64,000 nucleotides of DNA from Bdellovibrionales bacterium (lineage in GTDB: Bacteria; Bdellovibrionota; Bdellovibrionia; Bdellovibrionales; UBA1609): positions 3,238 to 67,237 of the forward strand of contig JBFWVI010000009.1 in NCBI GenBank assembly GCA_050246815.1, read 5' to 3'. This document shows, piece after piece, positions 9,706 through 33,692 of this stretch. The number at the start of each line of letters is the position of its first letter. The first letter of the stretch is position 1. Under the pieces are notes generated by a model, which searched no databases, had not been told where the DNA came from, and was given only the letters and a program-made list of their open reading frames with translations. Position numbers and translations under genes: made by a program.

Positions 9706-11034
9706 TTGAACTGTAGCGCCTATTTCAAATTGCTTGTGGGGCTTTTGCTTGGACTTTGTGCCGAGGCTTGGGCCGCCACTGATGGGCTGGTGGGCATGCG
9801 CTCCCTGCTGAGTTGGGCAAAAGAAAGCCAAGTGGATTGGCGCGAGGCTACTTACGCACGAGAAAAAGCCGGGATGAGTGTCACTTCGGCGCGCTCGGTG
9901 TTCTTGCCGGATTTAGGTCTGCGCTCGACGTATACTTACGACTGGCAACTTGATGATGCGAAAAGTGACTCGGTTTCATCTGAGGCAATGATCGTTTCGA
10001 CCTGGTCGCTTTATGACAATGGGACTTCGTTTCGAACTTTTCGCATTCGCAATTTGGAATTGGAAAAGGCCAAACTTCAGGAAACCACAGCACACAACTC
10101 AGTGAGCTATGAGGTTTTTGATCGTTACTTGCGCCACCTGTTGGCTCGTCGCCAAAAGGAAATCACCACAGGCAAACTGAATCTTTTGGTGGGGCAGTAT
10201 CGCTTGACTCAGCAACAGTATCGTCAAGGTTTGAAGACACGTCGCGATTACCAGCGGCTCGAGTCCGAGACGGAGCGGGCGCGCCTGAATCTGCTTCGCC
10301 AGGAAAACTCGGAGAAAGATTCTTTCGATGAGCTGAAACGCTATTTGGGCGTAAGTGGCGCGGCACTGACTTCGATGGAAAAATTAAAGATTGTACCGGT
10401 CGCGAGTTTTTTACCAGCCATGCAGCGTATGCGGGATTTTAATAAAATCAAAAAGGACCAAGTTCTAACTGTGCGAACTGCCGAGCTGGACAAAGATGTA
10501 CGCCGGTTACAGAGTTTGCAGGCCGACACGCCGCTTTGGCCAATGGTGGATTTGAATGGTCAGGTGGGTTACGGCTCGCAATCCTTTGCGGGATTTGGCG
10601 AAAGCTGGCGTGATCAGGATCGTTTCTATGGTCAGGGGCTGGTTCAATTCAGCTGGAATTTGTGGGATTGGGGCGGGCGGCGCAGTACGGCTCGTGCGGC
10701 TCAGCTTGATGAAAGGCTTTCTCATTTGCGGTTCGATCAAAGTCGTTTGAACGCAGATGCGGAATTTGAAAGATTGTTGCGCGATTATCTGCGGCTTGAA
10801 AAGTCTTTGGCCGTTGTGCGCAAGGTGCACTCCATCGAATTGAGCACATTTCGTGATATTGAAGTCGAATATCGTGAAGGGCGCGCCTCTTACTTGGACT
10901 TGATCACCAGTTTGGATCGGCGTTCGCAGGCCGAGCTGGACGTGGAGCAAGAAACGGTGGCGATGCTTTTGAATATGTCACAGCTCTTGAGAATGACGGG
11001 GGACCTGTATGAAGCTTGCCTGCAGTTGGACTAA
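9706..11034 (+). CDS. TolC-like outer membrane efflux protein
   Basis: 442 aa from a TTG start. It has a signal peptide (...LGLCAEAWA) and an outer-membrane-factor-like N-terminal pattern (ARSVFLPDLGLRSTYTY). It is the first gene of an overlapping three-gene efflux set. Confidence 0.7.
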   Translation: MNCSAYFKLLVGLLLGLCAEAWAATDGLVGMRSLLSWAKESQVDWREATYAREKAGMSVTSARSVFLPDLGLRSTYTYDWQLDDAKSDSVSSEAMIVSTWSLYDNGTSFRTFRIRNLELEKAKLQETTAHNSVSYEVFDRYLRHLLARRQKEITTGKLNLLVGQYRLTQQQYRQGLKTRRDYQRLESETERARLNLLRQENSEKDSFDELKRYLGVSGAALTSMEKLKIVPVASFLPAMQRMRDFNKIKKDQVLTVRTAELDKDVRRLQSLQADTPLWPMVDLNGQVGYGSQSFAGFGESWRDQDRFYGQGLVQFSWNLWDWGGRRSTARAAQLDERLSHLRFDQSRLNADAEFERLLRDYLRLEKSLAVVRKVHSIELSTFRDIEVEYREGRASYLDLITSLDRRSQAELDVEQETVAMLLNMSQLLRMTGDLYEACLQLD

Positions 11035-11860
11035 TTTTAACCTGGTGATGATGGCAGGGGCGCTCGCTGTGAGTTGCACTAAAAAAATCGATTCCACTGT
11101 CAAAACCGGAAAAGTTGAAAAGACCGACGTTATTCAGCGTACCACATTGAATGGCAGCCTACGTGGCAATCGGCAGAGCCAGATCCAGCCGGGGTACTCT
11201 GGTTATGTGGGCAAAGTTTTTGTGAAGGTCGGTGAAGACGTGAAGGCTGGACAGGCTTTGGTGAGCATCACGCAGACGATCAACCAAAACTTGAACGAAG
11301 TATTTCCGATACGTGCGCCGTTTGCGGGAAAGGTGACTCAAATTCTGAAGCAAGAGGGCGAATACATTTCGACGTCGAGCAGCAACAACGCTTTGTTGGT
11401 GCTGGATGATCTGACCTCGATGTGGATTGATGCCAATATCCCCGAGGTCGACATTGCCAAGGTATCTTTAGGGCTTGAGGCGCAAATTCGTGCCAATGCT
11501 TTGCCCGGACGCACTTACAAGGGGGCGGTACAGACCCTGTCACTGTCTTCCAAGGCCGCCACGGATCGTTGGGACCGAGGCCGGGTGGAGTTTCCGGCTG
11601 AAATTCGAGTGCTGGATCCGGATCAAGATCTGAAGCCCGGCATGACGGTTGTGGTGGATGTGATTTCGGCCAAAGTAGAAGGGGTACTGGCGGTGCGACA
11701 TGAATTTGTGCATCGCGAGCGTGGGGATGTTTTTTTGATCGACAAAAATGATCGGCGTTATCCGGTTGAGCTGGGACTTTCAAATGAAGACATGGTGGAA
11801 ATTCGCAGCGGTGTAAGTGAAGGTTTTGAAGTCAAAATGAAGGACTTCACAAAACTTTGA
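11009..11860 (+). CDS. Efflux pump periplasmic adaptor (MacA/HlyD-family membrane fusion lipoprotein)
   Basis: Lipoprotein-type signal (...MMAGALAVSC). Lipoyl-like hairpin halves GYVGKVFVKVGEDVKAGQALVSI and IRAPFAGKVTQI are present. It overlaps both the upstream and downstream genes. Confidence 0.75.
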   Translation: MKLACSWTNFNLVMMAGALAVSCTKKIDSTVKTGKVEKTDVIQRTTLNGSLRGNRQSQIQPGYSGYVGKVFVKVGEDVKAGQALVSITQTINQNLNEVFPIRAPFAGKVTQILKQEGEYISTSSSNNALLVLDDLTSMWIDANIPEVDIAKVSLGLEAQIRANALPGRTYKGAVQTLSLSSKAATDRWDRGRVEFPAEIRVLDPDQDLKPGMTVVVDVISAKVEGVLAVRHEFVHRERGDVFLIDKNDRRYPVELGLSNEDMVEIRSGVSEGFEVKMKDFTKL

Positions 11861-13950
11861 TGGAGCTGCTGCTTGAAACCCGCAATTTGGGCTTTTCTTA
11901 TAAGACAGGGCCGCCTGTTTTAAAGGGTATTTCGTTTGGAATTCGGCATGGCGAATTTGTGGCAATCACAGGTCCATCGGGCTCGGGCAAGTCGACTTTG
12001 TTTTATTTGTTGGGTGCGCTGACTTCTAAATTCAAAGGCGATATTTTTTTTGAAGGCATTTCTTACCGCACCATGAGTGCCGAGAAAGCCGCCGTGTTTC
12101 GCAATCAAAATATCGGCTTTGTATTTCAGCAGTTTTACCTGCTGCCGCGGGCGAATGTTTTGGACAACATATTGTTACCAGCAAATTATCCCTTTGAAAC
12201 TTCGCGCCCCACACTGGTGGACCAAGAACGAGCTAAAAATTTAGCTCATGAGTTGGGAATAGAGCATTTACTAGAGCGCGGACCACAACAGCTTTCGGGC
12301 GGGCAGCAACAACGAGTGGCGATTGCGCGAGCCCTGCTGCGAGACCCAGATTTGATTTTGGCTGATGAACCCACGGGAAATTTGGACAGTCACTCGAGTG
12401 AGGCGGTTTTTGGCTTGCTGCGCGAGATGAATCGCAAAGGAAAAACCGTGGTTTTGATTACTCACAGCCAAGAACTAGCCAATCAGTGCGAGCGAATCAT
12501 TCGCTTTAAAGATGGTGAAATCGAAGAGGATGTGAAAAATGGATCTAAATCGGCAGAGGGTTCTGTTCAAGAGTCAAAGGGGGCGCTTGAAGGACTGAAT
12601 CTTTCGGACATCGCCAAATTTCGTATGCGGGAACCTTTGGCCCCCGGGTCGCGTTGGATGCAGTTTTTGGCCACATGGTCTTTGGTTTCTTATTGGCGAT
12701 CGCTTCGGCCTGCCATAGAAAATATCCGGCGCAGTAAGGCCAAATCTTTTTTGACGATGCTGGGTGTGGTGCTGGGGATCGCGGCGGTTTTGAGTACGAT
12801 GAGTCTGGGCGATTTTACCAAACGGCGGGTGCTGGCCGGCTATGAGTCAATGGGTGTTAATAACTTGAATTTGAATGGTTATCCAAATTGGCGCCGCAGC
12901 TCGCGTGAATATGCCCCAGCTATTTTTCAGGCCTTTGATTGGCGGCGGGACTTGTTACCATTACAAAAAATATTCACTGAAATTGAGGCCATGTCACCCG
13001 TGCTGCAAGTGTGGAGCCCTAAATTTAATTTCGGCGGTAACACTTTGTCAGACGACACGACCTTGCTGGGGGTGAATGAAGACTATTATATGATCACTAA
13101 TCAGCAGCTTAAGGAGGGGCGACGCTTGATGTGGTTGGACGTCGAGAACGCCCATCCGGTGTGCGTGATTGGCTCAGGCGTGCAGAAGAAACTGTTCCGC
13201 CATGATGCTGCCCTGGATCGCATCGTCACCATTTTGCCGCAAAATCAAGAAAGTGAAATTCCGTGTCGCGTGGTGGGCGTATACAAACCTCAGCCGTCGC
13301 AAAATGCCAACAACCAGCCCGATGATATGATTTACGCACCTTACACCTACTTGCAGCGCGGTTTGACCAATCCTTGGGAGCGGGACATGCGCGGAGTTTC
13401 GATCAAAATCAGTTCCGGTTTTGACCCGGATAAAATGGGCAAACAATTTGAAGGGTATTTTAAGTCCCGCTATGGCAACACGGGCCAATTCAATTCCAAT
13501 TCGAATGCGAAGGCCATCGCCGAGATGCGACTTTTTGTGGCCATTTTTTCATCGCTTTTGACTGCGGTGGCGCTGATCGCCTTGATTGTTGGCGGGGTTG
13601 GGATCAACAACATGATGTTGGTGAATTTATCAGAGCGATTAAAGGAGCTGGGCTTACGCAAGGCCTTGGGCGCGACACCACAGCAGATTCGCGCACTGCT
13701 GCTGACCGAGTCTTTGGTTTTGTGTCTGATCGGCGGTGTGGTGGGTTTGATTTTAGGATTTTGTGGATACCACGGCTTGATCTATGCCGCGACGAAGTTA
13801 ATTCCAAACCTTGAGTTTCAGTGGGTTGTGCTATGGGGGGCTGTGCTGCTGTCGGGAGGCGCGGTCATCATCACGGGACTTTTAAGTGGCATGACTCCGG
13901 CGCTCAAAGCGGAACGTCTTCAAGTTATCGATGCGCTAAGACAGGAATAG
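11860..13950 (+). CDS. macB: MacB-type ABC transporter (fused ATPase + FtsX-like permease)
   Basis: Walker [10 protein letters not shown], signature [15 protein letters not shown] and Walker [13 protein letters not shown]. These are followed by a large periplasmic loop and C-terminal TM helices. The ATG at 11860 overlaps the adaptor stop (TGATG). Confidence 0.85.
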
Positions 13951-14123: not shown

Positions 14124-14948
14124 GTGAAAAGAAGCAGTCTTCTTCAAAACCTGAGTGTCATCGTGTTTTTTGCCGGCATGATTTTTTTGTTTCAGAATTG
14201 CAATGTGTTAAGCCGGCCTCAGGCGGTCGACATGTCATCACTTTCGTTGCTTTTATTTCATGACAACTTTGATGTGGCGACTTTACAATGTATGGATTGT
14301 CATGAAAGTGATCGAAAAGACGTCGCTCACTTTGCAGGGCAAGACTGTGCCGGTTGCCATGTGCCTGGCCCAGGTTGGGCTGTAAGCGCGGATGCCGCAC
14401 ATAACCCAGTACCAGTTCAATGCAAATCCTGCCATGCTGATGGAGCCACTTACGATCGATATCCTGTTGGTCATATGGCAATTGCAAGTGGCAGTGATTG
14501 TATTGACTGCCATAAGGCGTCCATCAGTGCGGGCTTTATGGATTGGAAGGGTGGTTTATTTGCACACGATGCTACATTAATCGCAGGAAGAAACTGTTCA
14601 AGCTGCCATGCTGCAGATCGCCCCCCGATCGTTAATTCAACGAACATCAACCCCAGTATCAATGATGCCCGTGTCGTGGATAAAACTCACTTTGCGGCCA
14701 AAGATTGCTTTTACTGCCACAATGCACCACCGACAGGAAACTCGTGGCGAGGTGCCAGTGCCAATCAGTATGAACACACCGATGCATCAGGAATCAAACT
14801 CAATTTCTGCCTCTCTTGCCACATGAGAAGTGAGCATGTGGGCGTACACGGCTCGGTCAACTCGGACTTAGACACAGACGGAAAGTGCCAGCAATGTCAC
14901 CAGAAACGAAGAAGCTGGGACAAATCGCCGCGCAATCCAAACTTGTGA
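14124..14948 (+). CDS. Octaheme c-type cytochrome, probable lipoprotein
   Basis: 274 aa from a GTG start. Eight CXXCH motifs: CMDCH, CAGCH, CKSCH, CIDCH, CSSCH, CFYCH, CLSCH, CQQCH. The signal peptide ends ...IFLFQNC. Confidence 0.8.
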   Translation: MKRSSLLQNLSVIVFFAGMIFLFQNCNVLSRPQAVDMSSLSLLLFHDNFDVATLQCMDCHESDRKDVAHFAGQDCAGCHVPGPGWAVSADAAHNPVPVQCKSCHADGATYDRYPVGHMAIASGSDCIDCHKASISAGFMDWKGGLFAHDATLIAGRNCSSCHAADRPPIVNSTNINPSINDARVVDKTHFAAKDCFYCHNAPPTGNSWRGASANQYEHTDASGIKLNFCLSCHMRSEHVGVHGSVNSDLDTDGKCQQCHQKRRSWDKSPRNPNL

Positions 14949-14950
14949 TT

Positions 14951-15541
14951 TTACTCTTTCAAAAGACGCGACATTTCTTGAATCGACGCAGGGCTTTGCC
15001 AATCTCTAAAACCACTAATCTTGCGGTAAAACTTCAAGCCTTTTTTTAAAATATAGCTTTCAGGCAGCGCTGAAGTTCCATAACTATTAGCGGTCTGTCC
15101 GAATGGGTCCAGCAATGTAATGAAATTCGAACTTGGTTTGATTTTTAAGTTTTTAAAAAAATCGAGCACCACGGACGAATTCTTGTCTTGCGAGATCGCG
15201 AGGATAAGAATTTCTTTTTCAAAGCTTCTTGAAAATTGAAGAAGAGAGGGCAGTTCGTCCAAACAGGGTTTGCACCAGGTAGCCCAAAAGTTAACGATCA
15301 CAATCTTATCTGTATGGTCTTGAATGGCAAATGGGCTTCCGTTCAAGTCAAGAAGCGAGAAGTGCGGCGCTTGTTGAAAGGGCGTCTGTAGAGTCGCAAT
15401 ATCAAGGTCCGAGGGATTGATTTCTGGATTCACAACATAGCGATCGACAAGTTTGTAGGTGCCGAAGGCGATGGCCACTACCGCGAGCAAAATCAGCGTT
15501 GTGGTTAAAGTCCGAGATCGAATGTGAACTGGTTGTGACAT
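14951..15541 (-). CDS. Membrane-anchored TlpA/ResA-like thiol-disulfide oxidoreductase
   Basis: 196 aa with an N-terminal TM helix (TLILLAVVAIAFGTY) and a thioredoxin-fold active site, FWATWCKPCLDELP. Its start overlaps the 3' end of the 30-heme gene by 37 nt. Confidence 0.8.
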   Translation of the reverse strand: MSQPVHIRSRTLTTTLILLAVVAIAFGTYKLVDRYVVNPEINPSDLDIATLQTPFQQAPHFSLLDLNGSPFAIQDHTDKIVIVNFWATWCKPCLDELPSLLQFSRSFEKEILILAISQDKNSSVVLDFFKNLKIKPSSNFITLLDPFGQTANSYGTSALPESYILKKGLKFYRKISGFRDWQSPASIQEMSRLLKE

Positions 15542-17985
15542 TTATTACATTCCTGCACGCCTAAAATTGGTGCGTGATTGAAGGTGGAGTTATCGACGTT
15601 GTTGCGATGGCAGTCTGTGCAGCTTGAGTAAGTGCCCTGGTAGACTCCATTGTTGTGGCACGAGAAACAATCCAAAGCTCGATGACTCCCGCGAAGCGGG
15701 AAGGCTGTCATGGAGTGGCGAAATTTTGAATGCTCCCAAAATGTTTGTCGGTGGCATTCGCTGCAATTGGGTAAGGAGCCATTGTGGACGTCGTCTTTTT
15801 GGTGGCAGACAGAGCAGCTTTCGCTGAGGCCCGAAAGTTTACGATCTTCTCGGTGGCACTCCACGCAAGACAGCGTAAAGTGGCTCGCATGCAAAGTGAA
15901 ATTGCGGTGAAAGTCCTTTACGATGGACCAACCTTTGTCGATGTGGCAGCTTTGGCAGCGATTGCCGAATTGCCCCTTATGGGTATCATCTCTTTTGTGG
16001 CAGTCGACGCAATCGGTTGAGAGTGGCCGATAGAGAGTTAATCTGTAGGCCTTCTGGTCGGGGCCAAATTGCACGCGCTTAGTTTCGTGGGGTTTATGGC
16101 AATCGCTGCATTTTGTCTTGACGTGTTTACCCGATAGCGCAAACCGTGTGCCCTTGTTGTGATTGAAGTTGGTCGGCGACCACTTTTTTTCGTTATGACA
16201 ATTTTGGCAGCTGATTCCTAATTGGCCAGCATGAAAATCAGAGTGACAAGTGGTGCAGGATTTTTTTTCCAGATCTGGGAAAAGAAAGCGGTGCCAAACT
16301 ACTTCTTTTTGTCCGTAAGTCGAGCGGTTCAATGGCTTGTGACAATCGGCGCATTTAAGATCTTTGTGCCGCCCTTTAAGGGAAAATGCGGTTCGCTCAT
16401 GGTCAAAGGATTTGAGATCAGAAAAGCGAGTGGTGGTATGGCATTCGGTGCAATTTTTTGCCGAAAATGCGGTGTGGAATTGATCCAAGTGAGGGTTGCG
16501 ATGACAATCGAGACAAAATCCGGATTCAAAGCTTGGAAACTTAAAGACTTGCTTGCCGTTTTGATTGTGGCACGAGGAGCATTTAAGATTTTGATGCTGG
16601 CCGCTGAGCTGGAATCGGGTTTGATTGTGATCGAAAGTTCCTTTTTTGTCATTGGGTTGCAGATGCCAGCCCTCTGTAATATGGCAAGTGCTGCACTTTT
16701 TATTTGTAAAAGCCTTTGATGGAGAGCCCAAGTGAGGGTTTTGGTGGCAGGCGTTGCAGCTGGCGGAGGTTAGGTTGTGCCATAAATATCGGCCTGGCTT
16801 GTTGGCCCTATGCAGTGGCATCAAGAGTCCAGCTTTCTTTTTTTCCGGTAGATGGCAGTCCGCGCAAGACAGTGCGCTGTGTTTGCCATCGATTTCAAAG
16901 CGAGTGTTTGTTGAGTGGTTGAAGTCGTGAGTTTTCTTCCAATCGGATTCGGAATGACAGGATAAGCAGTTGTTTGGATTTTTTATGCGTGGAGATTTGT
17001 AGGCGCCAAACAAATGCTGATCTTTATGACAAGTGAGGCAGGCTTGTGAGAGGCCTTTGTAGTTGAGTTGGGCCGCTTTGGGCCGGCCGGCGTTTTGTTT
17101 ATGACAGTCTGTGCAGCGAAGCTGGGCGTGTTTGCCGCGAAGCGGATAGCCGGTGTTTTGGTGTGGGAAGCTTGTTGTCTTCCAGCTAGTTTGATTGTGG
17201 CATGTGGTGCAATTGCCGTTTTGATATTTAGCCGAAAGATTTTGTCGGTGAGGCGATTCATGACAGCTAAGGCACTTTGAGCTTGAAAGCTGTTTCCAAT
17301 GATAGCGCGCAGGTGACTTGGGGGTGGTCGGCTTCTGAGGGGAGTGACAGTCTTGGCACTTTAACTGAGCGTGCTTTTCTTCAAGCTGAAATCGCGTATC
17401 CCGATTGTGATCAAATTTGGTTACTGTTTTCCAGGCCTGACTGTTGTGGCATGCATCACAGTCCTTTCGGGCCCACTTATCCGTGAACTGATGAATGTCG
17501 TCTTTGCGGTGGCAAGAGATGCAGCTTGAGATCTGCCCAATGTAGCGGACCCCGTCGGGTCGAATAGGCTTTTGTGAGCGCTTTTGTTTGTGGCAGTCCG
17601 TGCACTTGAGTTGAGCGTGTTTGCCCGTCAGCGAAAGGCCTGTGATGTCATGGTTGAACTTGGCTTCGTTCAAAATTGTTGTATCATGTTGGCGACCTTG
17701 GTGGTCGGAATGGCAGTCCTGGCACTTTTTATCTGTGCGTCCGTGCAGTCCGCGTTTTTCATTTACGAACGGCAGGATCTCCTTATGGCATTCAAGGCAT
17801 TTTTGGCTGGGCAGTCCTTTGCCCGCATCGTGGCATTTCATGCAGTCCGTGGCCTCTAAGTCTTTGTGCCCTTCGATAAGGGGGCCTGGTGCAAAGAGTT
17901 TATTGAGCAGGGCTTCCCGACTGGCCTCTTGGGCTTGCAGGACAACAGGTATCAAAACCAGTAGGGTATAGAGCCAACGCTTCAT
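15505..17985 (-). CDS. 30-heme c-type cytochrome (secreted)
   Basis: 826 aa with a signal peptide (LIPVVLQA/QEA). I counted 30 CXXCH motifs. The segment F-x-H-x(2-4)-T-x-F-x-L-x-G-x-H-x2-L-x-C-x2-CH recurs nine times, at hemes 4, 7, 10, 13, 16, 19, 22, 25 and 28. Confidence 0.85.
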   Translation of the reverse strand: MKRWLYTLLVLIPVVLQAQEASREALLNKLFAPGPLIEGHKDLEATDCMKCHDAGKGLPSQKCLECHKEILPFVNEKRGLHGRTDKKCQDCHSDHQGRQHDTTILNEAKFNHDITGLSLTGKHAQLKCTDCHKQKRSQKPIRPDGVRYIGQISSCISCHRKDDIHQFTDKWARKDCDACHNSQAWKTVTKFDHNRDTRFQLEEKHAQLKCQDCHSPQKPTTPKSPARYHWKQLSSSKCLSCHESPHRQNLSAKYQNGNCTTCHNQTSWKTTSFPHQNTGYPLRGKHAQLRCTDCHKQNAGRPKAAQLNYKGLSQACLTCHKDQHLFGAYKSPRIKNPNNCLSCHSESDWKKTHDFNHSTNTRFEIDGKHSALSCADCHLPEKKKAGLLMPLHRANKPGRYLWHNLTSASCNACHQNPHLGSPSKAFTNKKCSTCHITEGWHLQPNDKKGTFDHNQTRFQLSGQHQNLKCSSCHNQNGKQVFKFPSFESGFCLDCHRNPHLDQFHTAFSAKNCTECHTTTRFSDLKSFDHERTAFSLKGRHKDLKCADCHKPLNRSTYGQKEVVWHRFLFPDLEKKSCTTCHSDFHAGQLGISCQNCHNEKKWSPTNFNHNKGTRFALSGKHVKTKCSDCHKPHETKRVQFGPDQKAYRLTLYRPLSTDCVDCHKRDDTHKGQFGNRCQSCHIDKGWSIVKDFHRNFTLHASHFTLSCVECHREDRKLSGLSESCSVCHQKDDVHNGSLPNCSECHRQTFWEHSKFRHSMTAFPLRGSHRALDCFSCHNNGVYQGTYSSCTDCHRNNVDNSTFNHAPILGVQECNKCHNQFTFDLGL

Positions 17986-19313
17986 AAGCGTCCCCGCGGT
18001 GGCGTGCCGTCTCGGAGCGGAGAAATTTTTTGATTGCCGAACAAAAGTGTGACTTGGAAGAGCGCAGAATAGATTTCAACTTTTTCGTCTCGTTGGTACT
18101 GTAGACTGGCGGCGCCAAAAAAACGCCGTGAGACTTGGAAGGCATAAGTGGCTTCACCGATGATCGGGTGCAGGTGTTGACCCGTGGTCTCAGTTTCAGC
18201 GCCAAGGTCAATTGAGAACTCATACTCATCTTTGTCGGTGAAATAGCCAAAGCTGTATCCGCCATAAGTGCCAGTTTTCGTAAATTCCTTTTTTTGTGCA
18301 AGTCGGTAAGACATATCGATGTTTTTGGAGTGTATTCTTGGCGTTTTACATTCGCCAGTGACATTTAAGCGCTCCAAGTCATCCGCGCTTCGTTTTCCGT
18401 AGCGGGTTTGGAGGGTCCAGCGAAGCGTTGGACTAGAGAGCAGGGTGCCACGAAGAGACGCTTCTTTGTATGGGCTGGGCTCTAATTGTTCGCGTAGGTC
18501 CTGGGCACGGCGATATTCGACAACGTCGTAGGCGCTCAGACCTAATTGAGTGAAAAAGCGGGATGTCCATTTTTGGTCATAGAGAGCCAACCCATTTTGA
18601 ACGTAAGTGCGAGGCACAAAATCCAAGTACACCATACTTGAGACTTGGCTCCCCACGGCCCATTGATAGGCGCTTCTTTGGTAGAGGTACTGGCGATCAG
18701 TTTGGCCATCGTATTGTTGTGTGACGTGGGCCACATGAAGTTCTTTGCGTGTAGTCCATGACGGTGTTTTGGGAGTCAGCGAAGCTATCGCGCCGAAGGT
18801 GGTGGCCTTTTCGCGAAACTGGAGATAGCTTTTGTCATATTGTTTTGGGTTAAGGCCGGCAAAGGCTTCGGCGCTAAAACTTTGCGACAGCCGCCATCCA
18901 ATGCTCGCGCCATCGTTGAATGTAGCGCCAGCATCTGGTATCGCATAGCGGCCGACCTCAAAAATAAGACCTTCTGAATTGGGATTTTTTCGTAAGGAGA
19001 GTTGGCGGACTTGGAATGAGTTGTGATCTGTCAGTTCCTGTCTTTCGCGGTCTAGCTTATTGAAAAAATCATGTTTGTCCCTGAGATCCGAGGTGAAGAC
19101 CCACTCGCGCGTGAGCAGGTCCCCCGCACGATAGTAAAACCGGGCCGACGAAGTGGCAAAATCATTGTTGTCGGTGCTGAAGGGCTCGGGCTCATGTTTT
19201 TCATGGGAGAAAAAGGCGCCAAAGCTAAGGCGCCCGTGTTCATCAAAGGCAAAAGTGGGGACCGCAAAGACGGCCCCAAACAACATCGGGATAAGTAAGC
19301 TTTTACTTTTCAT
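17982..19313 (-). CDS. Putative outer-membrane beta-barrel (porin-like) protein
   Basis: 443 aa with a signal peptide (MLFGAVFAVPTFA/FDEH). It shows alternating hydrophobic/polar stretches rich in Y/F/G (for example YEFSIDLGAETE...ATYAFQVSRRFFGAASLQYQ...IYSALFQVTLLF). Its stop overlaps the cytochrome start (ATGA). No family was recognised by eye. Confidence 0.5.
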   Translation of the reverse strand: MKSKSLLIPMLFGAVFAVPTFAFDEHGRLSFGAFFSHEKHEPEPFSTDNNDFATSSARFYYRAGDLLTREWVFTSDLRDKHDFFNKLDRERQELTDHNSFQVRQLSLRKNPNSEGLIFEVGRYAIPDAGATFNDGASIGWRLSQSFSAEAFAGLNPKQYDKSYLQFREKATTFGAIASLTPKTPSWTTRKELHVAHVTQQYDGQTDRQYLYQRSAYQWAVGSQVSSMVYLDFVPRTYVQNGLALYDQKWTSRFFTQLGLSAYDVVEYRRAQDLREQLEPSPYKEASLRGTLLSSPTLRWTLQTRYGKRSADDLERLNVTGECKTPRIHSKNIDMSYRLAQKKEFTKTGTYGGYSFGYFTDKDEYEFSIDLGAETETTGQHLHPIIGEATYAFQVSRRFFGAASLQYQRDEKVEIYSALFQVTLLFGNQKISPLRDGTPPRGRL

Positions 19314-19342
19314 TTCAATCAGGCTCTGTCTAGAATGCTAGC

Positions 19343-21085
19343 GTGGGATGGCTTAAACGTCAGCTTTTGTTCAAAATCTTTTCCTCGGTCAAATTCGCCG
19401 TCCCGTTGCTGTTGGTCATCGCGGCGGTGATCGCGGCCGGGACCTTGGTTGAGAGTCGATACAACGCCAGCTATGCACAAATGCGAGTCTATGAAACCTG
19501 GTGGTTTCGCGCTCTGATGGGCTGTTTGGGGCTTTCTGTTTTCACGGCGGCATTGTCACGCTGGCCATGGCAAAAGCGCCACGTGGGTTTTTTAGTCACG
19601 CATCTAGGTATTTTGATGATGCTGGCGGGAGGCGTGGTCACAAAACTTTGGGGCATTGATGGTCAGTTGCAGATACCCGAAGGAAAGTCGGGGCAGCAGG
19701 TGTTTATTTCGGAGCGTGTCTTTGAGTACTCAGGACCAAGAGATTTTAAGAAAATTCTCATCCCCACAAGCGCGAGTGCGTGGCGTGAAGGGTGGTTGAG
19801 CCCGGTCAGGCAGGAGCCGGATTCACCTGCGCAAGTCGTGGGATTTGAGCCTTTTGTACGACCTCGTGCTCAAAGCGGCCCCCGGGGAGCAGGGGGGAAG
19901 TTCATTGCGTTTCGCCTGCAAAGCCAGTTTTTTGATCAGGAGGAATGGCTGGACTCCGTTGAGCGACCACAAATTCAAATGGGGCCGGCGCTGATTCGCT
20001 TTGGTATGCAAGAAAAGATGCTCGTGCCAAAGCAGGAGCCGCTGCATAAAAAAGACTTTGTGGGACTGTTTATTCGAGACGCCGATGGCGAAGCCGTTGC
20101 CAAACGTCTAGACATTGGTCTTGGGCAGCGCGAAGCCCGCATCGGGGCTGTGAAAATTCAGGTGAAGCAAGTTCTGAAGCGTGCCACTGTGGCGGACAAC
20201 AAGATCGCGGAGGGCGATAGCGGCCCGCTTAACCCAGCACTGGAGATTGAGATCTTAGCGAATGGAAAAACATATCGCGATGTGATTTTCTCGCGCTTCC
20301 CAAGCTTTTCCCTTCTGAAAGAAAATCCAACTCGCTTTCGCTTCGAATACGTGGCTGGAGGTTCGGGAGAATCGCTACAAAATGAGGATGCCGCGCGCAA
20401 TTTAATTGAATTTATTCCTTCGCCTGAGCAATCGGACAAAGCCATTTTGAGGTTGTCCAAGCAAGGCAAAGTCATTTTAGAGAAAGAAGTAAAAGTCGGA
20501 GAGCCAACCGATACTCCATGGATGGGTATGAAAGTGACTTTAGTTTCCTTAACTGCGCCTGAAACCAATACAGCGCAGGCGGAGAAAATTGAGACTATTC
20601 GCCCCACGCCTAAACAGCCCAATTTGCCGCCGAGTGCAATTTTAGTTCGTGTGGCAGGCGAGCAACCTCCTTTTTGGCTGGTGGAGGGCGATATCAAGGA
20701 TGTTCAGGTTCGAGGAGAGCGTTACCAGTTCTATTATGGGCTTAATTCCATTCGCTTGCCGTTTGCGCTTGAGCTCTTAAAATTTACAAAAGTTGACTAT
20801 CCGGGAACTGAGACTGCGATGTCGTTTGCGAGTGACGTTCGCGTCGTAACAGACCAAAGTCGACATACAATTTCGATGAATGAACCATTGAAACGAGATG
20901 GTTACACTCTTTATCAGAGCAGTTATGATCTACAACCGGGACGCCCTGCGCTTTCGATCTTTTCTGTGAATCGGGACCCTGGGCGTTGGATCAAATACAT
21001 GGGCGGATTGGTTTTAGCATTTGGGATTGTCACGCTGACCATAACGAGAAGCCGGATGGCGCGGCGGAGCGGGAAACAAGTATGA
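19343..21085 (+). CDS. ccsB: Cytochrome c biogenesis protein CcsB/ResB (System II)
   Basis: 580 aa from a GTG start. The ResB-like N-terminus is KFAVPLLLVIAAVIAAGTLVESRYN..., followed by a large periplasmic domain and a C-terminal TM. It overlaps ccsA by 4 nt. Confidence 0.8.
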   Translation: MGWLKRQLLFKIFSSVKFAVPLLLVIAAVIAAGTLVESRYNASYAQMRVYETWWFRALMGCLGLSVFTAALSRWPWQKRHVGFLVTHLGILMMLAGGVVTKLWGIDGQLQIPEGKSGQQVFISERVFEYSGPRDFKKILIPTSASAWREGWLSPVRQEPDSPAQVVGFEPFVRPRAQSGPRGAGGKFIAFRLQSQFFDQEEWLDSVERPQIQMGPALIRFGMQEKMLVPKQEPLHKKDFVGLFIRDADGEAVAKRLDIGLGQREARIGAVKIQVKQVLKRATVADNKIAEGDSGPLNPALEIEILANGKTYRDVIFSRFPSFSLLKENPTRFRFEYVAGGSGESLQNEDAARNLIEFIPSPEQSDKAILRLSKQGKVILEKEVKVGEPTDTPWMGMKVTLVSLTAPETNTAQAEKIETIRPTPKQPNLPPSAILVRVAGEQPPFWLVEGDIKDVQVRGERYQFYYGLNSIRLPFALELLKFTKVDYPGTETAMSFASDVRVVTDQSRHTISMNEPLKRDGYTLYQSSYDLQPGRPALSIFSVNRDPGRWIKYMGGLVLAFGIVTLTITRSRMARRSGKQV

Positions 21086-22725
21086 AAAGAAACTGGCTCG
21101 TCTTGATATGTATGCTGTGCATTCCCTCATCGGTCATGGCCCTGACAGATCCGCATGAGGCATTTTTAAGTCATGGCCGACAGATTCGAAGCCAGCTTTT
21201 TGAAACTTTGCCTGTACATGATCGTGGACGTATTAAGCCGGCACATACTTTTATGCGCGAGGCGATTTTATTTGTAACGGGAGGTTATAACTTCAGCGGG
21301 CTGGATGCCGTACAAACTTATCTGAGTCTTATCGGCTTTTCTGAAATTGAGCGGCTCAAAGTATTGAACGTCAGGCATGTGCCTGTGCGCAAAGCCTTGG
21401 GTTTGAACGCGTCAGCGAGATTTTTTTCAACGGCGGATATCGAAAGCAGTAAGTTATTGGAATTTGCTCAGCCGTTGTTGGAAAAGGAAGAGAAAAATTC
21501 GCGAGCGCTTGAGCCCCACGAAAAAAACCTGCTTGAAATCTACAACCAGTATTGGCTGTTAAAAAATATTCATTCAGGCCAACACTTGCTGCGGGCCGTG
21601 GATGCAAATGAGGTGGGACATGCGGCTGAATTCCACCAAGAGCCGACCGGCGAAGCGGTGCAAAAAGTTAGAGATTGGTTACAGGCGACTATCGATGGGA
21701 ATTGGAACTTAGTTTCGGAGTTGCGTTCACTTACATTCGAAGCTGTACGCCAACAACATTGGCCCGAGCTTTTTGCCAAGCAATTTGAGCACCTAGAAAG
21801 AGAAGTTCAGTACAACAAAATTCGCCCATTTTTAATCGCAGGCCTGCTTTTTTTAATTCTTGGCGCGAGCTTGGCGTTTAAGGACCATGTGCCGTTTCTA
21901 TCGAAGGTTAACTTTGGTTATTTACTTGTGCTGCCTTTTTTTCCGCTGGCCTATGGCCTTTATCTAAGAGTGATCATCACCGGGTTTGCGCCTGTGACCA
22001 ATATGTACGGAACCATGATCTGGGTTTCGTTTGGTATAGGGCTGTTCAGTCTAGTTTTATGGTATCTGTATCAAAAGCACCGTTTTGTCGGCGGCCTTTG
22101 GATCGCCGCCGCGGCAACACTTTTTTTAACTGAGAGTATTCCGCTGGTTCTAAGCCCGGATCTTGACCCAATTGTCGCTGTTTTACGGTCGAATCTGTGG
22201 CTGACCATCCATGTGCTCACGATTGTCATTTCTTATGCGGCCTTTGCTATTGCGATGATCCTTGGCAATATCGTTTTGATTCGTACTTTGCGTCGGCCTG
22301 TCTATGATGATCCTGCCATTCGCGATGCCGCCAAATCTTGCTACAGAATGATCCAGCTTGGCGTTTTTTTACTTTCCGGAGGCATTATTTTAGGAGGTGT
22401 CTGGGCGGATTACTCTTGGGGGCGTTTTTGGGGGTGGGATCCGAAAGAAACATGGGCCTTAATCGCAGATCTTGGCTTTTTGGCCATTCTACATGCGAAA
22501 TACGTCGGATGGCTGGGGGCCTATGGTCTGTTGGCGGCCTCGACTGTTGCATTTTTGCTTGTGATCATGGCCTGGTACGGCGTCAATTTTATACTTGCGG
22601 CGGGCCTGCACTCTTATGGCTTTTCGAGCGGCGGAGCGACAATGGTATTGGTTTTCGTGATCATGCAATTGGGGTTGTTGGCCGCCTCTCTTATGCGTTA
22701 TTCGCGGAGTAAAGTGGTAAGGTGA
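21082..22725 (+). CDS. ccsA: Cytochrome c biogenesis protein CcsA/ResC (System II heme handling) with a long N-terminal periplasmic extension
   Basis: Trp-rich WWD-type heme motif WGRFWGWDPKETWALI and multiple TM helices. The ATG at 21082 (MKRNWLVLICML...) overlaps the ccsB stop (ATGA). The ORF-track start at 20986 lies inside ccsB. Confidence 0.85.
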   Translation: MKRNWLVLICMLCIPSSVMALTDPHEAFLSHGRQIRSQLFETLPVHDRGRIKPAHTFMREAILFVTGGYNFSGLDAVQTYLSLIGFSEIERLKVLNVRHVPVRKALGLNASARFFSTADIESSKLLEFAQPLLEKEEKNSRALEPHEKNLLEIYNQYWLLKNIHSGQHLLRAVDANEVGHAAEFHQEPTGEAVQKVRDWLQATIDGNWNLVSELRSLTFEAVRQQHWPELFAKQFEHLEREVQYNKIRPFLIAGLLFLILGASLAFKDHVPFLSKVNFGYLLVLPFFPLAYGLYLRVIITGFAPVTNMYGTMIWVSFGIGLFSLVLWYLYQKHRFVGGLWIAAAATLFLTESIPLVLSPDLDPIVAVLRSNLWLTIHVLTIVISYAAFAIAMILGNIVLIRTLRRPVYDDPAIRDAAKSCYRMIQLGVFLLSGGIILGGVWADYSWGRFWGWDPKETWALIADLGFLAILHAKYVGWLGAYGLLAASTVAFLLVIMAWYGVNFILAAGLHSYGFSSGGATMVLVFVIMQLGLLAASLMRYSRSKVVR

Positions 22726-22729: not shown

Positions 22730-24073
22730 ATGAAATGGCTGGTGATGTTGTTAGACCATCTTTGGATCTGGGGTTTACTTATTTTTGGTGGACTGGCCTA
22801 TTACGGTGTCGCAAAAAAAAATCGGCAAGAAAATCAGGCAAAAAAAATTTTGCAAAAAGCTGTGGCGACCGGGCTTGATGAGCCGTTGAGTCTGCACCCA
22901 GAGGTCGACCCGGCGAAATGCGCGGGTTGTGGCGCCTGCACGAAGGTTTGCCCCGAAGGTGACATTCTTAAAATGATCAACAGCAAGGCTGTTTTGGTTT
23001 CACCAACGAAGTGTGTGGGCCACGGCGAATGCGAGCGCGCCTGCCCCTTTGGCGCCATTGACTTGGTATTTGGCACTAAAAAACGTGGTGTCGATATTCC
23101 ACGCCTTTCTAAGAACTATGAAACAAATGTACCTGGACTGTATATTGCGGGTGAGTTGGGCGGCATGGGGCTGATCCGCAATGCGATCAAACAAGGCCAT
23201 CAGGCTGCAGATCATGCCTTGAGCAATTTAAATCCCAGCGTGAAATCCGACACGGATGTGCTTGTCGTTGGGGCTGGTCCCGCCGGATTGGCGGTATGCC
23301 TGACGGCGATCGTGCATAAAAAGCGTTATCTATGTATTGAGCAGAATACGGCCGGTGGTACGGTTTATAATTTTCCTCGGCAAAAAGTTGTGATGACCCA
23401 TCCAGCGGATCTGCCGGGTGTAGGGAAAATGAAGTTTCCGCGTAATGTGGTTTCAAAAGAGGAGCTGTTGCACTATTGGAATCAAGTGCGGCAAAAGGTC
23501 GGAATTAAGATTAGAGAAAATGAAAAATTTGAGGGACTTGAAAAGGTCGGAGATCATTTCAAAGTCAAGACCTCAAAGGCGGAGTACATGGCCCAAAAGG
23601 TTGTCTTGGCTATGGGTGTGCGAGGCTCGCCTAGGCGCTTGGGCTTGCCAAATGAAGACACGACAGGTGTGGCTTATAACTTGATTGATCCGGCACAATA
23701 TACGAACAAAAAAATCGCGGTGGTGGGCGGCGGTAATGCCGGTGTGGAAGCTGCGCAGATGCTGGCTAACCCTAAATATAAAAATCAGGTGACTTTGTTG
23801 GTGCGTGGTCCTGCATTTGATCGTTGCAATGAGGACAATAAGCGAATTATTGAGGATATGGCCCAAAAAAAAATGGTCCAAATTTGGTATGAAGCCCAAG
23901 TGAAGGAAATTAAAAAAGACCAGCTGAATATTGAGCGTGCGGGGCAATTGCTGGACATCGAGAATGATCAGCTTTTTGTATTCGCAGGCGCCGAGATGCC
24001 GTTTAAGTTTTTGATGAGCTTAGGAGTCGAAATTAATAAAGCTTTTGGTCAGAAATTGAAGTCGGGTGGATAA
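22730..24073 (+). CDS. Membrane-anchored 2x[Fe-S] ferredoxin-domain / FAD-NAD(P)H oxidoreductase
   Basis: 447 aa. The N-terminal TM helix is followed by a K/R-rich stretch. The first cluster motif is CAGCGACTKVCP; the second is CVGHGECERACP, with His where the second Cys is expected. Two Rossmann motifs are present: VLVVGAGPAGLA and IAVVGGGNAGVEAA. No CXXC dithiol occurs outside the Fe-S domain. Confidence 0.8.
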   Translation: MKWLVMLLDHLWIWGLLIFGGLAYYGVAKKNRQENQAKKILQKAVATGLDEPLSLHPEVDPAKCAGCGACTKVCPEGDILKMINSKAVLVSPTKCVGHGECERACPFGAIDLVFGTKKRGVDIPRLSKNYETNVPGLYIAGELGGMGLIRNAIKQGHQAADHALSNLNPSVKSDTDVLVVGAGPAGLAVCLTAIVHKKRYLCIEQNTAGGTVYNFPRQKVVMTHPADLPGVGKMKFPRNVVSKEELLHYWNQVRQKVGIKIRENEKFEGLEKVGDHFKVKTSKAEYMAQKVVLAMGVRGSPRRLGLPNEDTTGVAYNLIDPAQYTNKKIAVVGGGNAGVEAAQMLANPKYKNQVTLLVRGPAFDRCNEDNKRIIEDMAQKKMVQIWYEAQVKEIKKDQLNIERAGQLLDIENDQLFVFAGAEMPFKFLMSLGVEINKAFGQKLKSGG

Positions 24074-24943
24074 ATGATCGCGTGGTTCGGCCGACAATTG
24101 ATTTTGCTTTGGTTTTTTATCGCGCTGATCCTGTGTTGGGAGTACTTAGCCTTGAACTACAGTCCTGGCTTAAGTCTATTGTTGTTTGCAAAAATAAAGT
24201 GGCCCTATTGGGCAGAAGTCGATTTTTCGACAAAACCTGGAAAGCCGATCAGCTATGCATTGGGTTGGATCGGTTTTGGGTTTATGGTCTCTACAAACTT
24301 TTATATTTTGCGTAAGCGTTTGGGCATTATGCAAAAGTGGGGCAACCCATCGGTCTGGCTGGATTATCATATTTTTTGTGGTTTGATCGGCCCCACTCTT
24401 ATTATTTTTCATACTGACTTTAAAGTTCGTGGCTTGGTCGCAATTAGTTTTTGGTCCATGATGATCGTTGCGGGCAGCGGTATTTTAGGACGATATCTGT
24501 ATATGAAGGTCTTGATTGGCGCAGCCGAATTGAGGGGGCAGATTCAAGAGTGGGATAAAAAAATTTCGACCTTAATCACATCCAGCAAAAAAAATGTGAC
24601 CGAAGCTGAGATCGCGGGCTTAAAAGGGATGGCACTGCAATACGCGGGGGCCACGCCGCTGACGGAAGAGGTCGTGGGGTTGAGTGGATTATTTAAAATC
24701 GTTTGGTTTTCTGTTGTTGGCGATATCAAAATATTTTTTTCGCATGCGGGGATTGGACGCCATCTTCATCCGTTGGCACCTATTGTACTTTTAAATTACG
24801 CCACCACGGTCCGGCGCGAACTCACGCTTGAACCCTTTCGCCGTCTTTTGGGCTACTGGCATGCGTTTCATGTGCCCTTTACGTTCGCGATGTACATCAC
24901 GGCTATCATCCACATCGTGGTCGTCTCGCTGCTGCGGGTCTAA
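24074..24943 (+). CDS. Integral membrane protein with two H-x13-H helices (candidate di-heme b-type cytochrome)
   Basis: 289 aa with about 5 hydrophobic helices. YHIFCGLIGPTLIIFH and FHVPFTFAMYITAIIH each carry two His separated by exactly 13 residues. The start codon abuts the upstream stop with zero gap. Confidence 0.6.
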   Translation: MIAWFGRQLILLWFFIALILCWEYLALNYSPGLSLLLFAKIKWPYWAEVDFSTKPGKPISYALGWIGFGFMVSTNFYILRKRLGIMQKWGNPSVWLDYHIFCGLIGPTLIIFHTDFKVRGLVAISFWSMMIVAGSGILGRYLYMKVLIGAAELRGQIQEWDKKISTLITSSKKNVTEAEIAGLKGMALQYAGATPLTEEVVGLSGLFKIVWFSVVGDIKIFFSHAGIGRHLHPLAPIVLLNYATTVRRELTLEPFRRLLGYWHAFHVPFTFAMYITAIIHIVVVSLLRV

Positions 24944-31574: not shown

Positions 31575-33692
31575 ATGATTCAGCGCCATTTGTGGGCAGT
31601 TTTGCTGCTCTGTTTTGCGGGGAGCTGCGCCTCAGCCCCCAAACAGGATGCATTTTCAAAATCAACGGCTTGGCTGGAGGAAGTGGAGGGCGAAAAGGCG
31701 CTCAATTGGGTAAGGGCCGAAAATCTGCGTACGCAAACGCGTCTTGAGGCCGATCCTCGTTTGGCAAAGTTTCGTGGGCAGTTTGAAAAAGTGTTGATGG
31801 CCAAGGACCGTATCCCTTTTGGATGGTTTGAAGGTTCTCGAATTCACAATTTTTGGCAAGACGATAAAAGCGTACGCGGCATTTGGCGTCGGACCACCCT
31901 GGACGAATACAAAAAAACCAAACCCAGTTGGGAAACTATTTTGGATTTGGACAAATTAGCGACCACCGAAAAAGAAAATTGGGTTTTCAGCAATGTGCAT
32001 TGTTTGCCTCCCGCAGAGGGACGCTGCCTGATGAGCCTGTCACGCGGCGGTAAGGACGCAGACGTGCTGCGCGAATTTGATTTGGCCAACAAAAGTTTTG
32101 TGAGTGACGGGTTTATTTTACCCGAGGCGAAGTCCTCGTTTTCTTGGTGGGACGAAAATACGATTCTGGTCGGCACGGATTGGGGCAAAGGCACACTAAC
32201 CCGCTCAGGTTATCCGCGCCAAGTGCGTGTTTGGCGACGTGGCCAAGATTACCGCAGGCTGCCTGTGTTATTTGAAGTGAAAGAAGAAGATTTGGCGGCG
32301 GGTGCGCTTGTTTATCAGCGCCCCGAAGGTCAATATGTTTTTGTGAATCGTCAGATTGATTTTTATTCGCAAGAATTTTTTTGGGTGCGCCCCGATTTTC
32401 AAGAGCTGCGCAAGATGCCGCTCCCTTTGGACGTAGATGTGATCGGCTTGCACAAAGGTCAGTTTATCATGAGCGTGCGAAAGCCGTGGATTGCGGATAC
32501 GGCGGATGGCGCACGCGCTGTTGCGTCGGGCGAGGTGGTGTCGTTTGATTTTGAAGCGTGGCTAAAAAACGGCAAATTGACTAAGGTCCGAACTATTTTT
32601 AAGGCCACCGAGCAGCAGGCTTTTCAGAGTTTGCGGCAGACCGCATCCGCCGTTTATGTCAGTTATCTTGAAAATGTTCAAGCCCGCGTGAATGAATTGA
32701 AATGGCAAGAGGGTGAATGGACTTCCACCCCAGTGTCCGTTGGCGACGGATTGAATATGAGTCTTTCAACCACCTCGGTCTATCGTGATGACATGATGTT
32801 GCGGGTGGAAAGCTTTTTGGCGCCCACCCAACTTTGGTATCGGGGCGAAAAAGACACCGGCTTTAAAACTCTGCGGAAAATGCCGGACCGTTTTAGTGCC
32901 AAAGGGTTGCAGGTTGAACAATTGTGGGCCACTAGTGCCGACGGCACCAAGATTCCCTATTTTTCAGTCGGCCCTAAAGAAAACAAGGTGACCGCGCGTC
33001 CCACTGTGCTTTCGGCCTATGGCGGTTTTGAAATTCCGCTCACCCCTTACTATTCGGGGGGCCTGGGCAAAGTTTGGATGGAGCGCGGCGGACGCTACAT
33101 CGTGGCGAATATTCGCGGCGGTGGCGAGTTTGGACCGCGTTGGCATCAAGCCGGCATCAAAGAAAATCGACCGCGGGTGTATGAAGACTTTATTGCCGTG
33201 GCCGAAGATTTGATCAGGCGGGGTTTGACCACGCCGAAGCAGCTGGGAATTATGGGTGGAAGCAACGGCGGATTGCTGGTGGGGGTGGCCTTCACCAAAC
33301 GCCCTGACCTTTTTGCAGCGGTGGATTGCCAAGTGCCACTTTTAGATATGATGAACTATCACCGGTGGCTGGCGGGAGCGAGCTGGGTGGGTGAGTATGG
33401 CGATCCAGAGGACTCTAAGATGCGTCAAGTGCTGCTTTCTTATTCGCCGCTGCACAACTTTCACGCGGACCGGACTTATCCAGAAATTCTTTTTGTGACT
33501 TCGACAAAAGATGATCGCGTGCACCCGGCCCACGCTCGCAAGATGGCCTATTTGATGCGTGAAAGTGGCAAGCCTTTTTTGTATTATGAGAACATCGAAG
33601 GTGGTCATGGGGCTGCGGCCAACTTGAAGCAAAGAGCCTATAAGTCGGCGCTCGAATTCACTTATTTCTCACAAAAATTAGGCTTGCCGTAA
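31575..33692 (+). CDS. S9 prolyl oligopeptidase-family serine peptidase, lipoprotein (paralog 1)
   Basis: 705 aa with lipobox CFAGSC and an N-terminal propeller region. The catalytic elements are GGSNGGLL (Ser), STKDDRVHP (Asp) and EGGHGAAA (His). Confidence 0.85.
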   Translation: MIQRHLWAVLLLCFAGSCASAPKQDAFSKSTAWLEEVEGEKALNWVRAENLRTQTRLEADPRLAKFRGQFEKVLMAKDRIPFGWFEGSRIHNFWQDDKSVRGIWRRTTLDEYKKTKPSWETILDLDKLATTEKENWVFSNVHCLPPAEGRCLMSLSRGGKDADVLREFDLANKSFVSDGFILPEAKSSFSWWDENTILVGTDWGKGTLTRSGYPRQVRVWRRGQDYRRLPVLFEVKEEDLAAGALVYQRPEGQYVFVNRQIDFYSQEFFWVRPDFQELRKMPLPLDVDVIGLHKGQFIMSVRKPWIADTADGARAVASGEVVSFDFEAWLKNGKLTKVRTIFKATEQQAFQSLRQTASAVYVSYLENVQARVNELKWQEGEWTSTPVSVGDGLNMSLSTTSVYRDDMMLRVESFLAPTQLWYRGEKDTGFKTLRKMPDRFSAKGLQVEQLWATSADGTKIPYFSVGPKENKVTARPTVLSAYGGFEIPLTPYYSGGLGKVWMERGGRYIVANIRGGGEFGPRWHQAGIKENRPRVYEDFIAVAEDLIRRGLTTPKQLGIMGGSNGGLLVGVAFTKRPDLFAAVDCQVPLLDMMNYHRWLAGASWVGEYGDPEDSKMRQVLLSYSPLHNFHADRTYPEILFVTSTKDDRVHPAHARKMAYLMRESGKPFLYYENIEGGHGAAANLKQRAYKSALEFTYFSQKLGLP

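Follow-up and report, generated by a model that had tools for sequence, protein, structure and literature searches.

The 64,000-nucleotide window analyzed here (contig JBFWVI010000009.1, assembly GCA_050246815.1, positions 3,238 to 67,237) comes from a Bdellovibrionales bacterium and encodes an 826-amino acid (aa), 30-heme c-type cytochrome (15505..17985, minus strand). We consider this protein to be, with fair though far from complete confidence, the wire that carries electrons through the periplasm in a PCC3-like porin-cytochrome conduit. An outer-membrane barrel gene overlapping the cytochrome gene, together with conserved genes for envelope redox proteins, provides the decisive context, which was absent from an earlier note that described the cytochrome from its sequence. 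That note left it open whether the protein spans the periplasm or stores electrons; the barrel and the conserved redox context favor spanning over storage.

Heme motifs and predicted ligation

A formal recount gave exactly 30 CXXCH motifs, or one heme per 27.5 residues, in agreement with the 30 motifs and approximately 27 residues per heme counted earlier in the 826 aa. The motifs account for every cysteine of the protein (60 of 60), and a motif scan of the protein found no CX3CH, CX4CH or CXXCK variants. Composition-preserving shuffles averaged 0.4 CXXCH and never exceeded 4. The assignment of the open reading frame (ORF) as a cytochrome is further supported by Pfam family PF14522 and by more than 100 full-length homologs. 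The translation begins with a predicted Sec signal peptide (aa 1–19, MKRWLYTLLVLIPVVLQAQ; 17929..17985, minus strand) whose cleavage site was placed by eye and which has no lipobox cysteine. As judged from these features, the protein is most likely a Sec-exported soluble c-type cytochrome.

Heme ligation and conservation were analyzed in an alignment of 76 homologs carrying 30 hemes. All CXXCH motifs of the 30-heme cytochrome were invariant or nearly so. Outside the motifs, exactly 30 histidines were either invariant or conserved in at least 90% of sequences; each module, and likewise the head region described below, contributes three of them (H40, 81, 95, 112, 123, 165, 193, 205, 246, 275, 286, 324, 357, 369, 418, 453, 464, 499, 529, 540, 585, 609, 621, 669, 693, 702, 734, 757, 768 and 804). 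The same alignment contained no conserved methionine. Thirty conserved histidines outside the motifs and no conserved methionine imply hemes that are all bis-His ligated. The simplest reading of this conservation is that the 30 hemes are low-spin, electron-transfer hemes without an open catalytic site.

Triheme module architecture

The mature region consists of a three-heme head followed by nine triheme modules, all encoded on the minus strand. The head (aa 38–103; 17677..17874) carries hemes 1–3 and is followed by module M1 (aa 104–185, hemes 4–6; 17431..17676). Central modules M2–M7 (aa 186–682, hemes 7–24; 15940..17430) start at aa 186, 267, 350, 445, 521 and 602. The tail (hemes 25–30; 15508..15939) comprises M8, a compact module of 66 aa (aa 683–748), and M9 (aa 749–826). 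Modules are 66–95 aa each (about 80) and contain three CXXCH motifs apiece.

The earlier proposal of nine triheme modules plus three extra hemes was borne out by three forms of repeat delimitation. Pairwise local alignments of the nine modules in the single sequence scored z = 7.4 to 24 relative to shuffles, with 30–49% identity. When the 76-homolog alignment was cut at the module boundaries, profile–profile comparison of every module pair gave probabilities of 94.5–99.9% over nearly the entire module length. Finally, a hidden Markov model (HMM) of the module, built from modules of several family members and therefore partly from the 30-heme cytochrome itself, gave nine full-length, non-overlapping matches (residues 106–183, 187–266, 268–347, 350–438, 447–519, 524–600, 602–683, 687–748 and 750–819). 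Profile–profile alignment of the head with the modules was only partial (35–49 columns, probability 92–97%). The head is accordingly best described as divergent by sequence, and it may represent a degenerate tenth module.

The order of elements in each module is F-x-H...T-x-F-x-L-x-G-x-H-x4-CXXCH (heme a), a loop of 22–36 residues, CXXCH-x2-4-H (heme b) and CXXCH (heme c), the last often followed by a tryptophan at the junction. A long signature of this type had been reported ahead of hemes 4, 7, 10, 13, 16, 19, 22, 25 and 28. A signature does precede each of these hemes, but the pattern as literally written fits only three of the nine sites. A relaxed form fits seven, and the core H-x9-13-H-x4-5-CXXCH fits eight. 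The signature ahead of heme 25 is shortened to H-x8-H-x4-C.

Gain and loss of central modules

The more than 100 full-length homologs of the 30-heme cytochrome display 35–59% identity, and none carries a functional name. Where hosts are named, they are Bdellovibrionaceae, Pseudobdellovibrionaceae, Oligoflexus and related metagenome-assembled genomes (MAGs). Among the top 120 homologs, 77 had 30 hemes and 30 had 33; others had 27 or 36, and six deviated by one from such a count. Related genome loci added members with 21 and 24 hemes, giving a family range of 21 to 36 that is almost always a multiple of three. In nearly all relatives, the number of module HMM matches equaled one third of the heme number minus one.

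Modules of variant proteins were assigned to sub-profiles of the 30-heme cytochrome. Every variant retained the head (N+M1) and the tail (M8+M9), with deletion or duplication confined to central modules M2–M7. Because up to five whole modules have been removed or added between conserved ends, the protein is very likely, on this comparative evidence, a linear string of modules. A variable center between constant ends fits an arrangement of beads on a string and not a compact globule.

A conserved neighboring gene for a predicted outer-membrane barrel

Directly upstream of the cytochrome gene lies a gene for a 443-aa outer-membrane beta-barrel protein with a signal peptide and a conserved C-terminal tail (17982..19313, minus strand). 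Its stop codon overlaps the cytochrome start codon by four bases (ATGA). The AlphaFold2 (AF2) model of the barrel contains 22 antiparallel strands, with a predicted local distance difference test score (pLDDT) of 87 and a predicted template modeling score (pTM) of 0.78. Foldseek matched it to outer-membrane barrels, with FimD/PapC usher pores at the top and porins also present, and no Pfam or NCBIfam family matched the protein. A protein search recovered 58 barrel homologs, all of which, where named, belong to the same organism group as the cytochrome homologs.

A scan of species-representative genomes identified 32 related loci, all in Bdellovibrionota-type genomes. In every one of these loci whose contig continues, a gene of the cytochrome family comes immediately after the barrel gene. 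This adjacency, mostly with the four-base overlap, is kept across barrel identities of 25–57% and spans Bdellovibrionaceae, Pseudobdellovibrionaceae, Bacteriovoracaceae and Oligoflexia.

The last ~18 residues of the barrel protein (17982..18035, minus strand) form a conserved P-x-R-D-G-x-P-P-R-G-x-L tail following the last predicted strand, which ends in a YRF-like motif. This tail is disordered in the AF2 model (pLDDT below 50). With an even number of strands in the model, the tail should be periplasmic, so that it is a candidate peptide for docking the cytochrome. Only 29 bases separate the annotated start of the barrel gene (minus strand) from that of the neighboring resB gene (plus strand; 19313..19343), a distance too short for two divergent promoters; one or both genes may actually start further in. 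Other loci have resB-ccsA on the same strand as the barrel gene and upstream of it.

Inner-membrane protein and comparison with known conduits

The window also encodes a 289-aa inner-membrane protein (24074..24943, plus strand) with two W-x3-H-x13-H motifs and an SGILG sequence (W95-x3-H99-x13-H113, S135-G-x-x-G139 and W262-x3-H266-x13-H280). The four histidines (H99, H113, H266 and H280) and SGxxG were invariant in 37 homologs, and all motifs were kept in 22 of 26 related loci. A crude hydropathy scan indicated about 4–5 hydrophobic segments. Weak matches within the family were to DUF4405 (28 of 37) and Ferric_reduct (6 of 37), and an exhaustive profile search recovered relatives in 3114 representative clusters, hence a large family. 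On the basis of its motifs, the protein is a candidate di-heme b transmembrane electron carrier. In RMG15855.1, a 678-aa protein of a Deltaproteobacteria MAG, the inner-membrane protein domain (427–676) is fused to N-terminal 4Fe-4S motifs. Similarity of RMG15855.1 to the Fe-S flavoprotein encoded next to the inner-membrane protein in the window (see below) is limited to the 4Fe-4S motifs (E 0.001), and the fusion weakly supports a direct electron link from an Fe-S protein to the membrane protein.

These features closely recall the PCC3 and PCC4 clusters of Sideroxydans, Leptothrix and other Proteobacteria, whose inner-membrane protein of about 300 aa has five transmembrane (TM) helices, two W-x3-H-x13-H motifs and SGxxG, and has been compared to a di-heme ferric-reductase domain (He et al. 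2017, PMC5566968). PCC3 combines this inner-membrane protein with a porin and two cytochromes, one periplasmic and repetitive (median 21 hemes) and the other extracellular (PMC5566968). A periplasm-spanning role has been proposed for the PCC3 periplasmic cytochromes of Gallionellaceae, which have 21–27 hemes (bioRxiv 10.1101/2023.01.26.525709). Like PCC3, the cluster described here has a barrel gene adjacent to a gene for a periplasmic cytochrome rich in hemes, and it encodes an inner-membrane protein with all three motifs; its second multiheme cytochrome is a candidate counterpart of the extracellular one. An Fe-S gene beside the inner-membrane protein gene is shared with PCC4 subgroup II. 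The cluster differs from PCC3 in its smaller barrel (22 strands versus up to 42 predicted membrane regions) and in the conserved presence of System II maturation genes and an Fe-S flavoprotein with an NAD(P)/FAD domain. The link between the inner-membrane protein and its proteobacterial PCC3/PCC4 counterparts is one of shared motifs only. Hosts also differ: here they are Bdellovibrionota, plus Bacteroidota by way of an Emticicia plasmid, and neither Bdellovibrio nor Emticicia is present in the supplement lists of He et al. Our search of the literature on multiheme, porin-cytochrome or PCC3 systems of Bdellovibrio and Bdellovibrionota found no description of this system.

The paradigm for such conduits is MtrCAB of Shewanella (6R2Q), where a multiheme cytochrome is threaded in an outer-membrane barrel with a lipoprotein cytochrome outside. 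MtrA differs from the 30-heme cytochrome in having 10 hemes and no triheme periodicity, and the Mtr gene order is reversed relative to the barrel-cytochrome pair.

Relation to c7 cytochromes and Geobacter polymers

Pfam Cytochrome_C7 (PF14522) matched the whole 30-heme cytochrome over seven stretches (E 2.8e-38, 130 bits; gathering threshold 24.8 bits). By module, E was <= 0.004 in all nine, and PF14522 was the top-scoring family for seven of them. When scanned alone, M1, M2, M3, M6 and M7 scored above threshold (27.6–32.2 bits), and M4, M5, M8, M9 and the head fell below it (17.5–21.2 bits). A search of Protein Data Bank (PDB) sequences with the module profile ranked GSU1996 of Geobacter first (3ov0, E 2.4e-13), and heme motifs a, b and c of the profile lined up in register with each of the four GSU1996 domains. 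OcwA (6i5b), UndA and MtrA (E 1.2e-11) followed within two orders of magnitude. Only the profile found these matches; a phmmer search of PDB sequences with the single 30-heme sequence found none. The profile also placed its motifs in register with those of PpcA, at a probability of only 29%. Candidate family memberships were rejected for MtrA/DmsE (TIGR03508, 88.4 bits versus a cut-off of 192.2) and for OmcA/MtrC, HmcA and NrfH, which scored far below their curated cut-offs.

The Geobacter "nanowire" cytochromes comprise GSU2210 with 27 hemes and GSU1996 and GSU0592 with 12 hemes each (PMC10138318). By heme count (27 = 9 x 3), GSU2210 would have nine triheme modules, a domain number we infer, and the concept of a multi-triheme polymer is thus already known. 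In common with GSU1996, GSU0592 and GSU2210, the 30-heme cytochrome has tandem triheme domains of about 75–80 aa on one polypeptide, periplasmic export, and about 26–28 residues per heme. Each GSU1996 domain has one His-Met heme (PMC10138318), whereas the 30-heme cytochrome, judged by conservation to be all bis-His, has none. Profile alignment located a conserved Met-containing stretch before the second heme motif in GSU1996, whereas the third distal histidine of modules of the 30-heme cytochrome comes after this motif. In c7 cytochromes, the equivalent distal ligand is located before the second heme motif. The Geobacter polymers further differ from the 30-heme cytochrome in lacking its long F-x-H...G-x-H leader, extra three-heme head and specialized tail, its pairing with an outer-membrane barrel gene, and its Bdellovibrionota host.

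The earlier note had likened the protein to the Geobacter c7 polymers. PF14522 and the top rank of GSU1996 among solved structures sustain the resemblance. Membership does not follow: the protein does not reach TIGR04257 (nanowire_3heme; whole protein 36.7 bits, best single module 26.2, cut-off 40), it has no predicted His-Met heme, and OcwA, UndA and MtrA match nearly as well. At the level of sequence, the tie to the Geobacter polymers is one of resemblance, not of demonstrated membership.

Neighboring envelope redox and maturation genes

Several genes around the barrel-cytochrome pair encode predicted redox or cytochrome maturation proteins. Directly downstream of the cytochrome gene is a gene for a membrane-anchored, ResA/TlpA-like thiol-disulfide oxidoreductase with a WCKPC motif (14951..15541, minus strand; Pfam AhpC-TSA and Thioredoxin_8), which scored 69.9 bits against the NCBIfam ResA subfamily, below the cut-off. 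Next to it, a gene on the plus strand (14124..14948) encodes a 274-aa cytochrome with eight CXXCH motifs, a Pfam C7 match and a signal peptide ending in cysteine (..LFQNC), features that make it a candidate lipoprotein and outer partner. On the other side of the barrel gene, and adjoining it in most loci, is a gene for ResB (CcsB-type) of System II cytochrome c maturation (19343..21085, plus strand; Pfam ResB E 3e-24). It is followed by a gene for a CcsA-type System II heme lyase/heme exporter (21082..22725, plus strand; Pfam Cytochrom_C_asm; 131 bits to TIGR03144, the NCBIfam "ccsB" model). The listed ORF of the latter starts at 20986, and the ATG at 21082 is the likely gene start.

Between the CcsA-type and inner-membrane protein genes lies a gene for a 447-aa Fe-S flavoprotein (22730..24073, plus strand), in which an N-terminal TM helix precedes a 2x[4Fe-4S] ferredoxin domain and a thioredoxin-reductase-like FAD/NAD(P) domain (Pfam Fer4_x and Pyr_redox_2/3). 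Its nearest NCBIfam models were YpdA/TrxR, below cut-off. Because it has no twin-arginine motif and has positive charges after the anchor helix, the flavoprotein is probably cytoplasmic.

Most of about 30 related loci contain genes for ResB, the CcsA-type protein, the ResA-like protein, the Fe-S flavoprotein, a membrane protein of ~285 aa and a second multiheme cytochrome. The second cytochrome has 7–41 hemes, and its signal peptide ends in cysteine in every copy with a complete N-terminus. In six loci, genes for the flavoprotein, second cytochrome, membrane protein, barrel and cytochrome lie on one strand, and four of the six have them in that order. A promoter and terminator scan of 13900–25200 gave no more sites than were found in shuffles, and operon boundaries were not drawn from it.

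A related cluster on an Emticicia plasmid

A similar cluster resides on plasmid pEMTOL02 of Emticicia oligotrophica DSM 17448 (Bacteroidota; NC_018749.1, 4198..15996). Its genes encode, in order, CcsA, an inner-membrane homolog with both motifs, a flavoprotein homolog (E 7.8e-112), a 23-heme cytochrome, a 40-heme cytochrome and a hypothetical protein of 538 aa, possibly the barrel. The 23-heme cytochrome has the same head and modules as the 30-heme cytochrome (E 7e-88). The 40-heme cytochrome contains 13 strict triheme repeats, with a heme spacing of 34-15-25 repeated 13 times. Because the plasmid cluster has its own maturation gene, its gene content suggests that this type of cluster is a self-contained cassette.

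Proposed electron path and alternative explanations

In the conduit that we propose, electrons would start at the membrane-anchored, cytoplasmic Fe-S flavoprotein and pass through the ferric-reductase-like, di-heme-b inner-membrane protein to the chain of roughly 30 hemes. One end of this chain would dock in or at the 22-strand outer-membrane barrel, and a lipoprotein multiheme cytochrome at the outer membrane would carry out the last step. Products of the adjacent System II genes (ResB, CcsA-type and ResA-like) would attach the hemes. A probably cytoplasmic flavoprotein with a ferric-reductase-like membrane partner suggests electron flow outward from NAD(P)H. If linear, and if scaled from GSU1996 (12 nm for 12 hemes), the chain would measure roughly 25–30 nm. 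We infer the physical complex, the end that docks, the electron direction and the chain length from the genes and their context.

Several observations weigh against such a conduit. The barrel has 22 strands versus 26 in MtrB, MtrB fell outside its top 50 structural matches, and the barrel could be plugged or serve another purpose. The 8-heme gene of the window is small and divergently oriented, and maturation genes could be clustered here merely through a heavy demand for heme attachment. The heme-less AF2 model of the cytochrome has a mean pLDDT of 73 and a pTM of 0.35, with low confidence at residues 695–826 although the tail is highly conserved. Foldseek comparison of the whole model with the PDB returned no matches, a result that is uninformative given a heme-less, loop-rich model.

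The cytochrome might instead be free in the periplasm and act as a capacitor, storing electrons when acceptors are scarce, as proposed for GSU1996. Its tandem triheme build and very low residue-per-heme ratio are shared with GSU1996 and GSU2210, both proposed capacitors (PMC10138318), its signal peptide lacks a lipobox, and GSU1996 is the best solved match of the module profile. A free store sits poorly, however, with a barrel gene strictly and translationally coupled to the cytochrome gene in all loci extending far enough, with conserved inner- and outer-membrane redox partners nearby, and with constant ends flanking a length-variable middle, which suggest two docking ends. We therefore regard a capacitor as unlikely, while recognizing that wire and capacitor roles are mutually compatible. 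That the barrel is simply an unrelated adjacent porin, and the cytochrome a servant of ordinary periplasmic enzymes, would agree with the lack of a family model naming the barrel and with its generic porin and usher matches (TM-scores of 0.26–0.49 in all but one). Such a coincidence is highly improbable given an adjacency maintained across 25–57% barrel identity in four Bdellovibrionota groups.

The same complex could also operate inward, taking up extracellular electrons, for example from Fe(II)/Mn(II) oxidation or from another cell. The inner-membrane signature and parts list match those of PCC3/PCC4, which were found in Fe(II) oxidizers and modeled as uptake conduits (PMC5566968; bioRxiv 10.1101/2023.01.26.525709), and all-bis-His multiheme chains are reversible in principle (Mtr/Mto, cited in bioRxiv 10.1101/2023.01.26.525709). 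However, no carbon-fixation or iron-oxidizer markers were seen within the window. Moreover, the predicted cytoplasmic partner pairs NAD(P)/FAD with 2x[4Fe-4S] beside a ferric-reductase-like membrane protein. NOX/FRE enzymes with the same layout conduct electrons outward. Inward conduction is consequently quite unlikely in our estimation, and an outward periplasmic wire of a PCC3-like conduit is the function we prefer.

A more specific and doubtful extension of this wire is that the family represents single-polypeptide, length-adjustable periplasmic rulers. Head and tail would dock the NOX/ferric-reductase-like inner module and the barrel, and 3 to 8 central modules would set the span. The resulting path from cytoplasm to surface would be hard-wired and independent of quinones, running from NAD(P)H via FAD and 2x[4Fe-4S] to two b hemes, and would be encoded by a self-contained cassette with its own System II genes, widespread in Bdellovibrionota and also found on a Bacteroidota plasmid.

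How electrons cross a periplasm of 20–30 nm is still debated, with diffusing small cytochromes and static wires as the opposing models. The family described here constitutes a natural test, as it has constant ends, 21 to 36 hemes in steps of three, and a barrel and inner-membrane di-heme candidate encoded alongside. C7-like polymers and PCC3-type clusters were already known; new here are the fixed ends with a variable middle, the predicted all-bis-His chain and the occurrence in Bdellovibrionota. If correct, our proposal would place extracellular electron transfer in a phylum known mainly for predatory aerobes. The pEMTOL02 cluster, present in a cultured Emticicia, is an experimental entry point. 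In protein engineering, heme wires of designed length might be assembled from the all-bis-His module, whose boundaries are well defined.

Other features of the window

Upstream of the cytochrome cluster is a tripartite efflux operon (9706..13950, plus strand) encoding a TolC-like outer-membrane factor, an HlyD-type adaptor and a MacB-type ABC transporter. Farther along, one ORF of 7109 aa (35782..57111, plus strand) is rich in FG-GAP repeats and in Calx-beta repeats, the latter with E 5.8e-118 in one half of the protein and 3.5e-47 in the other. Its product is a giant, repetitive protein of surface or adhesin-like type. Ahead of this ORF are two prolyl-oligopeptidase (S9) genes in tandem (31575..33692 and 33694..35772).

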